Virus record (IMG/VR): IMGVR_UViG_2526164690_000025 | DNA: 64,000 nucleotides | Strand: one strand, 5' to 3' | From: a virus | Lineage: Duplodnaviria > Heunggongvirae > Uroviricota > Caudoviricetes | Shown here: piece after piece, positions 1-6,740 of the stretch | How the letters are laid out: every line of letters begins with the position of its first letter | How positions within the stretch are numbered: position 1 is the first letter of the stretch | Program-made: the position numbers and the translations under genes | Notes under the pieces: generated by a model | What the model was told of the DNA's origin: nothing | The model's input: only the letters and a program-made list of their open reading frames with translations | Databases searched by the model: none

Positions 1-979
1 ATACCGTTGGCATGCTAGCTTTATCTGTTCGGGCAATACGATGCCCATTGTACTTGTTGACTGGTCTGATATTCGTGAGCAAAACGACTTATGGTATTGC
101 GAGCTTCAGTCGCACTACACGGTCGTTCTGTTACTCTTTATGAGAAAGCGTTCCCGCTTTCAGAGCAATGTTCAAAGAAAGCTCATGACCAATTTCTAGC
201 CGACCTTGCGAGCATTCTACCGAGTAACACCACACCGCTCATTGTCAGTGATGCTGGCTTTAAAGTGCCATGGTATAAATCCGTTGAGAAGCTGGGTTGG
301 TACTGGTTAAGTCGAGTAAGAGGAAAAGTACAATATGCAGACCTAGGAGCGGAAAACTGGAAACCTATCAGCAACTTACATGATATGTCATCTAGTCACT
401 CAAAGACTTTAGGCTATAAGAGGCTGACTAAAAGCAATCCAATCTCATGCCAAATTCTATTGTATAAATCTCGCTCTAAGGGCCGAAAAAATACAGCGCT
501 CGACACGGACTCATTGTCACCACCCGTCACCTAAAATCTACTCAGCGTCGGCAAAGGAGCTATGGGTTCTAGCAACTAACTTACCTGTTGAAATTCGAAC
601 ACCCAAACAACTTGTTAATATCTATTCGAAGCGAATGCAGATTGAAGAAACCTTCCGAGACTTGAAAAGTCCTGCCTACGGACTAGGCCTACGCCATAGC
701 CGAACGAGCAGCTCAGAGCGTTTTGATATCATGCTGCTAATCGCCCTGATGCTTCAACTAACATGTTGGCTTGCGGGCGTTCATGCTCAGAAACAAGGTT
801 GGGACAAGCACTTCCAGGCTAACACAGTCAGAAATCGAAACGTACTCTCAACAGTTCGCTTAGGCATGGAAGTTTTGCGGCATTCTGGCTACACAATAAC
901 AAGGGAAGACTTACTCGTGGCTGCAACCCTACTAGCTCAAAATTTATTCACACATGGTTACGCTTTAGGGAAATTATGA
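1..979 (+). pseudogene. IS10 transposase remnant (frameshifted, 5' end outside window)
   Basis: ORFs 91-534 and 635-979 are fragments of the 402-aa transposase that is intact at 5510-6718; frame broken by the two indels. Confidence 0.8.
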
Positions 980-992
980 GGGGATCTCTCAG
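1..992 (+). mobile_element. IS10 (IS4 family), 3' portion of a copy truncated by the window start; degenerate
   Basis: Near-identical to nt 5741-6731 of the intact IS10 at 5403-6731; ends with the IS10 terminus ggggatctctcag at 981-992; 1-bp deletion in A-run at 81-84 and 1-bp insertion near 493 relative to the intact copy. Confidence 0.9.
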
Positions 993-1552
993 CACTCAAC
1001 ATCCGATGCTACTGTTGTATCAACACGATTCAACAATACCCGATATGTCTTCCATGCAGTCAGTAACGATGCCTCTTCCTCCGTCGCAATATCCAAATCT
1101 ACGGCATCCTGAAGTGGCGCAATATGCTCACTGGCCATCTGCATCAGGCTGTTTTTTGTTTCTTCCGCCTTCCGGATCCGGAACAGTTTTTCTGCTTCTG
1201 CATCTTTCACCCAGGCTGTGCCGTTCCACTTCTGAAACTCCCCTTCCGGGGATAACCAGGTGACATTTTCCGGTAATGGGCCAAGTTCAGAAATAAATAA
1301 CGCGTCGCCGGAAGCCACGTCATAGACGGTTTTTCCCCGATGGTCTTCAACGAGATTCCACGATGCCTCATCACTGTTGAAAACGGCCACGAAGCCAGCC
1401 GGAATATCTGGCGGGGCAATATCGGTACTGTTTGCAGGCAGACCTGTATGAGGTGGAATGTATGCATCACCTTCACCAATAAACTCATTGGTTCCAGCCA
1501 GTAGATTATAAATTTTTATGGTCCGTGATTGTTCACTCATTCTGAATGTCAT
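989..1552 (-). CDS. tfa: tail fibre assembly protein (Tfa-like); stop codon supplied by IS10 terminus
   Basis: 187-aa ORF directly downstream of the fibre gene; Tfa-like size and position; TGA stop (989-991) lies inside the IS10 end, so the native C-terminus is probably lost. Confidence 0.65.
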
Positions 1553-2803
1553 TTATGCAAGCCTCACAATATAGTTAAATGCGATGTTTTTTACGGTGTT
1601 TTCTTCGTTACCCGTAGCGTTAACGGTGATGGTGTGTCCGTGGGGACCAATAATGACAGAATGGGCATGAGCACCAATGCCGATAGTGTGGTTATGGGCA
1701 CCGATATATACATTGTGAGCATGCTCGCCTGCGCTCGACGTGGTACCAGTACCTAACGCAGCGTTAAAACCGGCTGATACACCATTCCCCGCGCCAGTGT
1801 GACCAACAGGTATATTGTGTGAATGATTTCCAGCGCTATTCGTAGTTTTTGTGCCGTAATCAAATGAACTGGTCGTTTTAGTACCGTAATCAAACGACGA
1901 TGTGGTTTTCGTCCCCAAATCCGTACTGGATGCGCTGGCGCTGTGGGTGTGCGATTTAATGCCGTCCTGTTCCTGAGACAATACGGCACGACCACTGCCG
2001 GGCTTGCCCTTAATCGTCCAGCCACGCATATCAGGAATAACGCCTGACGGATAAGCCGCTGCAAGTTTCGGGTATGCAGATTTGTCAAAAGTCTGCCCCT
2101 GCATCAGGGCATAACCAGACGGAACGGTATCTGATGGCCACGGGATTGGTGCGCCGACTGGGTAGCTTTCTGGTGGAAGATTTTTCGAGGTATAAACTTC
2201 TGCCCAGTCTTCCTCAAAACCATAACCGTCTCTTGAAGAACGGTAGAACAGACCACCATTTCTGTAATGCGCCTTCATCTGCAAGGTCGGGCAACTTCCG
2301 ACTCCGGTATAGAAGTTAACCAGAATATAGCTGTCGGCAGAGCGAATGACATTGTAAGCGCCTGATTCGGCATTCCAGGGAACGCCCCCATCCGCATCGG
2401 CATACGTATCCGTTGCTCTTCTGGCAAAAGCAGCAACATGCGCAGCGGTTAAAGTGATATCAGTAGAACCATCAAACGAGACGCCATTGATAGTACATGC
2501 TGTCTGCAACTTGGTCGCTGTAGCCGCATTACCAGAGGTGTCCTGATCCCCTTTGGCATTGACGCCGGGAATTGAATCTTTTGACGTATAGACCTGCGCC
2601 CATTCAGACCAGTTGGCAGAATCAGTATCACGCCGCGAACGGATATGTACGGGCGCATGGTCACCACTCGTGCCACTCCAGCCAATGAATAACTCACCTT
2701 CGCCAGCAGCGGTGGCACCTTTAAGGTGAAGCACATTGCCATAGGGGAAGGTAGCCATTGTTGTATGCCTCATACAGCTGAATCCCGGATGTTCCCTGTG
2801 CAT
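1553..2803 (-). CDS. tail fibre protein, distal (receptor-binding) part
   Basis: 416-aa ORF with Gly/Thr/Ser-rich repeats and C-terminal His-rich HxH repeats ([24 protein letters not shown]) typical of long tail fibre tips; overlaps upstream fibre ORF in another frame. Confidence 0.7.
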
Positions 2804-4846: not shown

Positions 4847-5393
4847 GATTTTCCCTAATCAATGTTGTGAAGCCTCATTGTAAGAGAAGTAACTTGTCAC
4901 CCCGCCCTGCGGACGGGGTGATTGTCAGGCGTCGCTATCCAGCAACAAATCATCTGCGCGTGTGCGATCAAACGTAGGTGTCGCTTTCACAATAGTGCCA
5001 CCAGGCGTTGCGGTGATCGGGGCGCTAATCGACGTAACTCCAGTAAGCGAAGTTGTATCCGAAGTTTCAAACCAGCAGAATGCTTTTTCGGTATCAGAAA
5101 TCTCGTTCAAAGTGATCATGTCGGCCTGTTCATTTACAACAACCGACAAATAGAGCGTAAGCCCATCAAACACTATATGCAGTGGCAGTAGAGGCTTTAC
5201 GAACTGATTAAACTTTCTGAGAATTTCTTCTGTAATTGCGGACTGATCTATCGTGCCAGTAATCCCCATTGTCCGGGCCAGGTCGTTTATGGGAATACTG
5301 ATCATCCCTCTGGAAGTCAGAAACATCTCGCCGAATGTGCCGCCGGTAGTCTCCAGTGTGCTTTCTGGTATTAGAACCGTGCCATAGGGATGA

Positions 5394-5402
5394 CGCTCAA
5401 GG
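5394..5402. repeat. 9-bp target site duplication (left) of IS10
   Basis: cgctcaagg, identical to 6732-6740; resembles IS10 hotspot GCTNAGC. Confidence 0.85.
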
Positions 5403-6731
5403 CTGATGAATCCCCTAATGATTTTGGTAAAAATCATTAAGTTAAGGTGGATACACATCTTGTCATATGATCAAATGGTTTCGCGAAAAATCAATAATCA
5501 GACAACAAGATGTGCGAACTCGATATTTTACACGACTCTCTTTACCAATTCTGCCCCGAATTACACTTAAAACGACTCAACAGCTTAACGTTGGCTTGCC
5601 ACGCATTACTTGACTGTAAAACTCTCACTCTTACCGAACTTGGCCGTAACCTGCCAACCAAAGCGAGAACAAAACATAACATCAAACGAATCGACCGATT
5701 GTTAGGTAATCGTCACCTCCACAAAGAGCGACTCGCTGTATACCGTTGGCATGCTAGCTTTATCTGTTCGGGCAATACGATGCCCATTGTACTTGTTGAC
5801 TGGTCTGATATTCGTGAGCAAAAACGACTTATGGTATTGCGAGCTTCAGTCGCACTACACGGTCGTTCTGTTACTCTTTATGAGAAAGCGTTCCCGCTTT
5901 CAGAGCAATGTTCAAAGAAAGCTCATGACCAATTTCTAGCCGACCTTGCGAGCATTCTACCGAGTAACACCACACCGCTCATTGTCAGTGATGCTGGCTT
6001 TAAAGTGCCATGGTATAAATCCGTTGAGAAGCTGGGTTGGTACTGGTTAAGTCGAGTAAGAGGAAAAGTACAATATGCAGACCTAGGAGCGGAAAACTGG
6101 AAACCTATCAGCAACTTACATGATATGTCATCTAGTCACTCAAAGACTTTAGGCTATAAGAGGCTGACTAAAAGCAATCCAATCTCATGCCAAATTCTAT
6201 TGTATAAATCTCGCTCTAAAGGCCGAAAAAATCAGCGCTCGACACGGACTCATTGTCACCACCCGTCACCTAAAATCTACTCAGCGTCGGCAAAGGAGCC
6301 ATGGGTTCTAGCAACTAACTTACCTGTTGAAATTCGAACACCCAAACAACTTGTTAATATCTATTCGAAGCGAATGCAGATTGAAGAAACCTTCCGAGAC
6401 TTGAAAAGTCCTGCCTACGGACTAGGCCTACGCCATAGCCGAACGAGCAGCTCAGAGCGTTTTGATATCATGCTGCTAATCGCCCTGATGCTTCAACTAA
6501 CATGTTGGCTTGCGGGCGTTCATGCTCAGAAACAAGGTTGGGACAAGCACTTCCAGGCTAACACAGTCAGAAATCGAAACGTACTCTCAACAGTTCGCTT
6601 AGGCATGGAAGTTTTGCGGCATTCTGGCTACACAATAACAAGGGAAGACTTACTCGTGGCTGCAACCCTACTAGCTCAAAATTTATTCACACATGGTTAC
6701 GCTTTGGGGAAATTATGAGGGGATCTCTCAG
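5403..6731 (+). mobile_element. IS10, complete 1329-bp copy
   Basis: Ends ctgatgaatcccctaatgatttt... and ...ggggatctctcag; encodes intact 402-aa transposase; flanked by 9-bp direct repeats. Confidence 0.95.
5510..6718 (+). CDS. tnp: IS10 transposase
   Basis: 402-aa ORF MCELDILHDSLYQFCPELHLKRLN..., recognised as IS10 (Tn10) transposase. Confidence 0.95.
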   Translation: MCELDILHDSLYQFCPELHLKRLNSLTLACHALLDCKTLTLTELGRNLPTKARTKHNIKRIDRLLGNRHLHKERLAVYRWHASFICSGNTMPIVLVDWSDIREQKRLMVLRASVALHGRSVTLYEKAFPLSEQCSKKAHDQFLADLASILPSNTTPLIVSDAGFKVPWYKSVEKLGWYWLSRVRGKVQYADLGAENWKPISNLHDMSSSHSKTLGYKRLTKSNPISCQILLYKSRSKGRKNQRSTRTHCHHPSPKIYSASAKEPWVLATNLPVEIRTPKQLVNIYSKRMQIEETFRDLKSPAYGLGLRHSRTSSSERFDIMLLIALMLQLTCWLAGVHAQKQGWDKHFQANTVRNRNVLSTVRLGMEVLRHSGYTITREDLLVAATLLAQNLFTHGYALGKL

Positions 6732-6740
6732 CGCTCAAGG
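6732..6740. repeat. 9-bp target site duplication (right) of IS10
   Basis: cgctcaagg. Confidence 0.85.

Follow-up and report, generated by a model that had tools for sequence, protein, structure and literature searches.

IS10 copies among the tail genes of a P1-like plasmid prophage

The tail-fibre region of bacteriophage P1 (NC_005856) is ordered 16 - LPs - R - S - U, with an invertible C-segment and cin. IS10 is a cut-and-paste element of the IS4 family, and its insertion at non-consensus sites is common. In the composite transposon Tn10, IS10 copies flank a tet cargo in inverted orientation, and the target duplication lies at the outer ends only. Insertion sequences have also entered P1-like plasmids such as pSvP1 and pTZ20_1P, and loss of the tail-fibre region through them is documented in plasmids of this kind (PMC6906374). 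The plasmid p1054a (NZ_JBUBIS010000002.1) is an independent case of such remodelling in the tail-fibre region. As in the DNA studied here, IS10 flanked by 9-bp repeats has entered the P1-like backbone in this group of plasmids, and insertion sequences stand in or near the tail-fibre genes. Their sites and their sets of insertion sequences differ from those described below, and the events are independent.

We analysed a stretch of 64,000 nucleotides, called the window. The two IS10 copies in its tail region are real but ordinary. The reading that we favour, and consider likely, is a P1-like plasmid prophage with at least two IS10 insertions. One of these is an inherited hit in gene 16. The other is a source-specific hit in tfa that carries probable consensus errors, and the two form direct repeats capable of deletion. 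The features are as follows.

1-992, plus strand: partial IS10 (copy 1), IS10 nt 338-1329, cut by the window start
989-1552, minus strand: tail-fibre assembly gene (tfa / P1 U-like, Caudo_TAP), truncated to 187 aa vs 192 aa in relatives
993-1001: CACTCAACA, presumed target duplication, the 9 bp directly after the last base of copy 1; its partner would be outside the window, to the left
1553-4400, minus strand: tail-fibre gene S, 949 aa in p88_0502-1
4412-4846, minus strand: homologue of P1 R (tail-fibre structure/assembly protein), 144 aa
4877-4895, minus strand: conserved P1 late promoter LPs, with -22 box and -10
4925-5402, minus strand: 3' part of the gene 16 homologue (baseplate/tail-tube protein), including the left duplication copy at 5394-5402
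5394-5402 and 6732-6740: target duplication of copy 2, CGCTCAAGG, a perfect 9-bp repeat
5403-6731, plus strand: complete IS10 (copy 2), 1329 bp, imperfect terminal inverted repeats, ISVsa5 family in RefSeq labelling
5448-5517, minus strand: RNA-OUT antisense RNA of IS10 (Rfam RF00240, 98.8 bits vs a gathering score of 41)
5510-6718, plus strand: intact IS10 transposase ORF of copy 2, 402 aa, DDE_Tnp_1 (PF01609, E = 1.5e-24)
6732-7098, minus strand: 5' part of the gene 16 homologue, ATG at 7096-7098

By its sequence, the window is assigned to a plasmid prophage of the P1-like (Punavirus) kind, from an E. coli O111 lineage associated with cattle. Over about 62.6 kb, it is collinear with p88_0502-1 (NZ_CP077568.1; E. 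coli O111:H11 strain 88.0502) at 99.95-99.99% identity. In the alignment, window positions 993-13539, 13540-62510 and 62502-64000 correspond to record positions 86903-99452, 1-48977 and 50307-51805, respectively. The annotation of p88_0502-1 includes a RepB-family initiator, a ParB family protein, an AAA ATPase, a C1 repressor, a Phd/Doc-type toxin-antitoxin pair and a terminase. The window thus combines collinearity with the tail and baseplate genes of P1 with kinship to a plasmid encoding maintenance proteins, as is found in P1-like phage-plasmids.

The match to P1 over 16-R-Sc is 98.3%. The window and P1 have in common the gene order 16-R-S-U, LPs, R and the constant part of S, as well as gene 16, bplA, pmgA and sit. 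The distal part of S and tfa are not those of P1, whose match ends at about window position 2464; they resemble lambdoid stf/tfa. In close relatives, tfa is adjoined by a U' remnant and a gene for serine acetyltransferase, and no cin is annotated in the stretch examined.

The sister plasmid p88_0502-1 also differs from the window. Its tfa is intact, with no adjoining IS10, and its S and gene 16 frames are free of run-length indels. Its second IS10 lies in inverted orientation at record positions 48978-50306, whereas the window has a clean empty site there, with the 9 bp of that site present once, at 62502-62510.

Both elements in the window are identified as IS10 from their sequence. The ends of copy 2 (CTGATGAATCCCC… and …GGGGATCTCTCAG) were located by exact search, and the terminal repeats were aligned. 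The left end of IS10 occurs once in the window and the right end twice (968-992 and 6707-6731), all on the plus strand. Copy 2 agrees with IS10-right of Tn10 in length, terminal repeats, 9-bp duplication, transposase and RNA-OUT, and no tested feature differs. It is 100% identical to both IS10 copies of p88_0502-1 (ISVsa5 family), one of which is at the same site, and 99.92% identical to the annotated IS10-right-like transposase gene in EF120459.1. The transcription of its RNA-OUT is directed at the outside end and the 3' fragment of gene 16; pOUT likewise points into the fibre operon. An earlier note on this DNA had reported an intact IS10 at 5403-6731 with a 9-bp duplication, and would have given up the reading had careful alignment shown no duplication. 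Our alignment placed CGCTCAAGG on both sides, directly against the exact ends. Measured against the consensus NGCTNAGCN and its relaxed form NPuCNNNGPyN (PMC4574204), the gene 16 target has one perfect half-site.

The interrupted tail gene, cleanly split as had been claimed, is the homologue of P1 gene 16. Removal of 5403-6740 fuses the two ORF pieces given in the earlier note (4925-5402 and 6732-6988) in frame. The joining therefore stands, but the upstream limit does not. The gene begins at 7098, and a window-specific deletion at 6951 (A6 to A5) puts its first 49 codons out of frame and so hides them. When the A at 6951 is restored, the reconstructed protein is 100% identical to the intact gp16 of NZ_CP077576.1. 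A comparison with the uninterrupted gene in relatives had been proposed; in two plasmids that share 99.9% identity with the window, the insertion is absent and gene 16 is intact at 837 bp. Copy 2 is a simple transposition, placed at about codon 122 of 278 and flanked by the canonical 9-bp duplication. Among 5,426 complete E. coli genomes, p88_0502-1 alone has the junction with gene 16, and there it is 100% identical. Because this sister plasmid has the insertion at the same nucleotide, it was inherited from a common ancestor, and the insertion is already public in that record. Disruption of gene 16 most likely abolishes tail assembly, which would leave a plasmid that replicates but makes no infectious particles.

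The 4410 bp between the two IS10 copies contain the 3' part of gene 16, the late promoter LPs, R, S and the tfa/U-like gene, in agreement with the claim that this segment holds the fibre and Tfa genes. The fibre gene had, however, been treated as intact. In the window, S is split into ORFs of 588 and 416 aa by two shortened runs, G5 to G4 and G3 to G2, at 2747-2749, probably an artefact of the same run-length class as those discussed below. A GC-rich hairpin (4898-4919) precedes LPs. Because the IS10 in gene 16 sits upstream of LPs, R-S-U retain a promoter of their own; a polar effect of the insertion on the fibre operon was considered and is, for this reason, unlikely. A scan of 4800-5600 for generic sigma-70 promoters and terminators gave no match. 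The empty sigma-70 scan is no surprise, as the late promoters of P1 do not follow the sigma-70 consensus.

Copy 1 is visible from IS10 nt 338 onwards, and its right end meets tfa precisely. The junction is at the last IS10 nucleotide (…CTCTCAG followed by CACTCAACA), and the alignment with p88_0502-1 begins directly after it, at 993 (record position 86903). The last six codons of tfa (WPVAPQ) are replaced by Cys and a TGA at 989-991 that comes from the IS10 end. The copy thus stops at 992 where the Tfa-like ORF acquires its stop, as first noted. Of the 4 positions that the relaxed target consensus specifies, the site CACTCAACA matches 3. We propose that this is a second, source-specific insertion, in which the inside end of IS10 was joined to the 3' end of tfa with removal of the six codons. 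Its left edge may be that of a simple insertion or the end of an IS10-mediated deletion or rearrangement. If it is a simple insertion, the left flank would read …GGCCACTCAACA and then the IS10 outside end. The rest of the window, inspected for a wrap of the replicon, contains neither the missing 3' end of tfa nor a further IS10 left end.

When 1-992 was aligned to 5740-6731, two 1-bp indels and three substitutions were found; the earlier note had given the indels correctly and left the substitutions unmentioned. One A is missing from the A5 run at IS10 nt 418-422, and one A is added one base past the A6 run (about nt 830). The substitutions are A>G at nt 818, C>T at nt 898 and G>A at nt 1304. 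All three are transitions and not plain run-length changes; two lie at run boundaries, and they could be real mutations.

Most probably, these five private differences are errors in the consensus, made by an error-prone assembly close to a contig end that falls in the repeat, and not mutational decay. Compared with p88_0502-1, the window has 3 substitutions vs about 12 one-base indels. The indels are mostly in runs of at least 5 bases and mostly deletions in A5-7, C5, T7 and G5 runs. Both copy 1 indels sit at the only two runs of at least 5 bases within IS10 nt 338-1329. The start of the window inside IS10 suggests an error-rich contig end. A special cause of this kind has to be assumed, since the density of differences in copy 1 is far above that of the rest of the window.

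The alternative of true decay, in which copy 1 has acquired two frameshifts and three substitutions and persists without transposase as a fossil usable for recombination, is unlikely. This was the view of the earlier note, which held the second copy to be decayed and its transposase dead. The broken frame is there as read: it is shifted after about codon 104 and then meets stop codons. The substitutions, not being simple run-length changes, also fit decay, and so does the significant excess of differences (5 in 992 bp, where the rate elsewhere in the window predicts 0.23; Poisson P = 4e-6). However, the surrounding 61.5 kb is only 3 substitutions from p88_0502-1. The insertion of copy 1 must therefore be very recent, and 0.5% divergence in the insertion sequence alone is hard to reach. 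A copy that had diverged beforehand would need a source, but the three copy 1 changes within 465-575 occur in none of 5,480 places where complete E. coli genomes carry IS10 (best identity 97.3%). A known IS10 variant, such as an IS10-left-like allele, was rejected, as the three tested variants are absent from the IS10 of 5,426 genomes. Finally, both indels belong to the window-wide error class that also breaks S and gene 16, which are intact in relatives. The decay part of the claim is not supported: in the sequence, decay and sequencing error look alike, and error is the more likely reading.

It is much less probable still that no IS10 stands beside tfa and that 1-992 arose in assembly, through a chimera or a misjoin at a contig end within a repeat. 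The window does begin within the element, errors are enriched in 1-992, and the second IS10 of the closest relative lies elsewhere. In addition, the IS10-tfa junction was not found when 1-1300 was compared by megablast with phage records, PLSDB plasmids and complete E. coli genomes, or when viral, genome and metagenome contigs were scanned for the exact 37-nt junction. Yet a random chimera would rarely give a junction exactly at the last IS10 nucleotide together with 3/4 target positions, and the clean empty site of the second p88_0502-1 IS10 shows that the copy was not simply misplaced.

In a further, highly improbable reading, the two copies act as a functional composite that carries the complete fibre operon LPs-R-S-U with its own promoter, either bounded by the outside end of copy 1 and the inside end of copy 2 or excised by recombination as a 5.7-kb circle. 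Were it true, host-range determinants could be carried by IS10 from one phage or plasmid to another. The likeness to Tn10 is limited to two IS10 copies flanking a segment. Movement as a composite transposon was rejected, since the segment lies where it natively belongs and a separate duplication flanks copy 2. The copies are direct, unlike those of Tn10, and the segment is native phage DNA, collinear with uninterrupted relatives, and not tet cargo. The duplication surrounds copy 2 alone. Since its inner junction thus carries its own duplication, copy 2 inserted alone. No tet cargo is present, as the earlier note had stated; the window is collinear throughout with p88_0502-1, whose annotation lists none.

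With both right ends on the plus strand, the copies are indeed directly oriented around the tail-fibre genes, as proposed. Homologous recombination between direct repeats yields deletion or duplication, never inversion. Of the suggestion that IS10 recombination could delete or invert the fibre segment, only deletion is therefore kept. RecA-dependent recombination between the copies would delete the 4.4-kb LPs-R-S-U operon and the 3' part of gene 16 as a 5.7-kb circle.

The IS10 insertions in the window are of little importance beyond annotation. The run-length errors of the source sequence create false pseudogenes (S, gene 16 and the IS10 transposase), and single-base frameshifts in the window should not be taken as biology unless a relative has been checked. 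IS10 has struck this plasmid lineage at three different sites, and its disruption of gene 16 probably leaves this P1-like plasmid prophage with defective tail assembly.

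The 4.4 kb between the two IS10 copies matches P1-like plasmids and phages. The window is collinear throughout (99.95-99.99% identity) with p88_0502-1 (NZ_CP077568.1), a sister plasmid of E. coli O111:H11:

Window 993-13539: p88_0502-1 record 86903-99452
Window 13540-62510: record 1-48977
Window 62502-64000: record 50307-51805

Genes are arranged as in P1, namely U/tfa, S, R, late promoter LPs, 16, bplA, pmgA, sit. Family matches for five genes support these assignments:

tfa (tail-fibre assembly): Caudo_TAP, phrog_105
S (tail fibre): Phage_fiber_2, Collar, phrog_454
R: phrog_2032
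Gene 16: phrog_2015 ("tail tube protein")
bplA: Baseplate_J, phrog_1369

Modules of icd and an antirepressor (KilAC) are repeated at 15797-17384 and 43490-45091, with 79-96% identity mutually and to further copies in p88_0502-1, where each of six annotated Icd-like genes adjoins a KilAC antirepressor gene.

An exact search with 25-mers from the IS10 ends found the left end once, at 5403, and the right end twice, at 968-992 and 6707-6731. All matches share one orientation, and chance alone would predict none; this bears out the earlier note's reading of one complete IS10 and a second copy in the same direction.

5403-6731: complete IS10
5448-5517, minus strand: RNA-OUT within it

The complete copy matches each of the two IS10 copies in p88_0502-1 at 100% identity, and the IS10-right-like transposase gene annotated in EF120459.1 at 99.92%. 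It encodes a 402-aa transposase (DDE_Tnp_1). The element is IS10 itself; the RefSeq name here is "ISVsa5 family".

The 9-bp duplication claimed for this copy is present: CGCTCAAGG lies at 5394-5402 and again at 6732-6740. Removal of 5403-6740 fuses the two gene pieces in frame, as the earlier note had stated, but its start coordinate has to be revised, the true start being 7096-7098. The A6 run of relatives is shortened to A5 at 6951 in the window, and the first 49 codons are thereby pushed out of frame. With the missing A put back and IS10 removed, the gene encodes a protein identical to intact gp16. IS10 occupies the same nucleotide in gene 16 of p88_0502-1, which matches a 300-bp query across the junction at 100% identity; at 80% coverage or more, this query found no other instance in 5,426 complete E. 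coli genomes. NZ_CP077576.1 and NZ_CP077492.1, 99.9% identical to the window, are without the insertion, and in NZ_CP077576.1, which was examined, gene 16 is intact (837 bp). Because the site is shared and the restored product is intact gp16, the insertion is an inherited IS10 knock-out of the classical kind, lying near codon 122 of 278. It is already known from the annotation of a public plasmid. P1 annotation describes gp16 as a baseplate or tail-tube structural protein, and tail assembly would be lost through the insertion.

Two conserved elements lie downstream of the insertion:

4877-4895: LPs
4898-4919: hairpin after gene 16

The insertion therefore leaves the R-S-U operon with a late promoter of its own. 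IS10 pOUT/RNA-OUT is likewise directed toward R-S-U. Homologous recombination between direct repeats deletes the intervening segment with one copy, or excises it as a circle, and does not invert it. Of the deletion or inversion of fibre genes proposed earlier, only deletion is thus retained: recombination would take out the 4.4 kb between the copies together with one IS10, or release them as a circle. A transposed composite element was rejected, as the intervening DNA is native and in its original position and the complete copy has its own duplication. The window contains no tet cargo, as the earlier note had said of Tn10.

p88_0502-1 has a second IS10, inverted, at record 48978-50306. In the window this position is an empty site, with GATTAAGCA once at 62502-62510. 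This is the unoccupied target of the p88_0502-1 element, and the lineage has therefore been struck at three sites, all different, across the two sister plasmids.

The window-p88_0502-1 alignment begins exactly at 993, the base after the end of the partial IS10 (1-992); p88_0502-1 has no IS10 at tfa. The tfa of relatives is 19 bases longer. The window's ORF has lost WPVAPQ and gained Cys and TGA from the IS10 end. CACTCAACA is the 9 bp abutting this copy, and its partner is expected left of the window start. Searches of complete E. coli genomes, PLSDB plasmids and phage records, and of viral, genome and metagenome contigs, gave no instance of this junction. P1 has no match to 993 to ~2464 (distal S and tfa), whereas lambdoid side-tail-fibre/tfa modules are 84-92% identical there. 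Beside tfa, the close relatives examined have a gene for serine acetyltransferase together with a U' remnant, and that stretch has no annotated cin invertase. The fibre tip looks like a mosaic that is probably non-invertible. Rfam RF02111 'IS009' has a strong match (192 bits) at 1011-1209 (minus strand), entirely within the 3' half of the tfa ORF. Despite its name this family is not an insertion sequence, and it may merely capture conserved tfa coding sequence.

Window 1-992 aligns to 5740-6731 (IS10 nt 338-1329) with five differences:

nt 418-422: one A short in A5 run
nt 818: A>G
nt ~830: one A added, one base past A6 run
nt 898: C>T
nt 1304: G>A

The two 1-bp indels reported earlier are in the text as written; the three substitutions had gone unmentioned. 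As written, the transposase frame is shifted past about codon 104 and then meets stop codons, as a dead, genuinely decayed copy would require. Such decay is nevertheless unlikely, since the indel pattern, the run positions and the unshared changes point to consensus error. Over 61.5 kb, the window and p88_0502-1 differ by only 3 substitutions but about 12 one-base indels, mostly deletions in A5-7, C5, T7 or G5 runs:

One base deleted, mostly in runs of at least 5 bases: 2747-2749, 6951, 11424, 16360, 18910, 22108, 26537, 39856, 56804
Extra T: 1552

Both indels of the partial copy are at the sole two runs of at least 5 bases within that part of IS10. Among 5,480 IS10 places (1,656 E. coli records), none shares any of the three changes within 465-575; the best identity to this stretch is 97.3%, that is, all three differ. 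The rest of the window would predict 0.23 differences in 992 bp, and five are present (P = 4e-6). That is more than mutation would leave in a plasmid otherwise near-identical to its sister, and the excess fits an error-rich contig end. A start inside an insertion sequence would be the expected outcome if the contig broke in a repeat. The apparent decay is most likely a sequencing artefact.

For P1-like plasmids, earlier work (PMC6906374) already describes IS10 insertions that have 9-bp repeats, as well as tail-fibre regions rearranged or lost through IS activity. In the chicken E. coli P1-like plasmid p1054a (NZ_JBUBIS010000002.1 43551-59122), the same tail-fibre region carries three elements: one IS10 that splits the alternative fibre gene Sv', another IS10, and an IS2 between S and R. 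These events are independent of the window's. The IS10 target sites here match the consensus partially, as is common (PMC4574204). The IS10 feature is real, was correctly spotted and is ordinary. The run-length indels break S (now ORFs of 588 and 416 aa) and gene 16, both intact in all close relatives examined, and one-base indels probably cause apparent frameshifts in other genes of the window too. It is this run-length error signature that makes the apparent frameshifts in S and gene 16.
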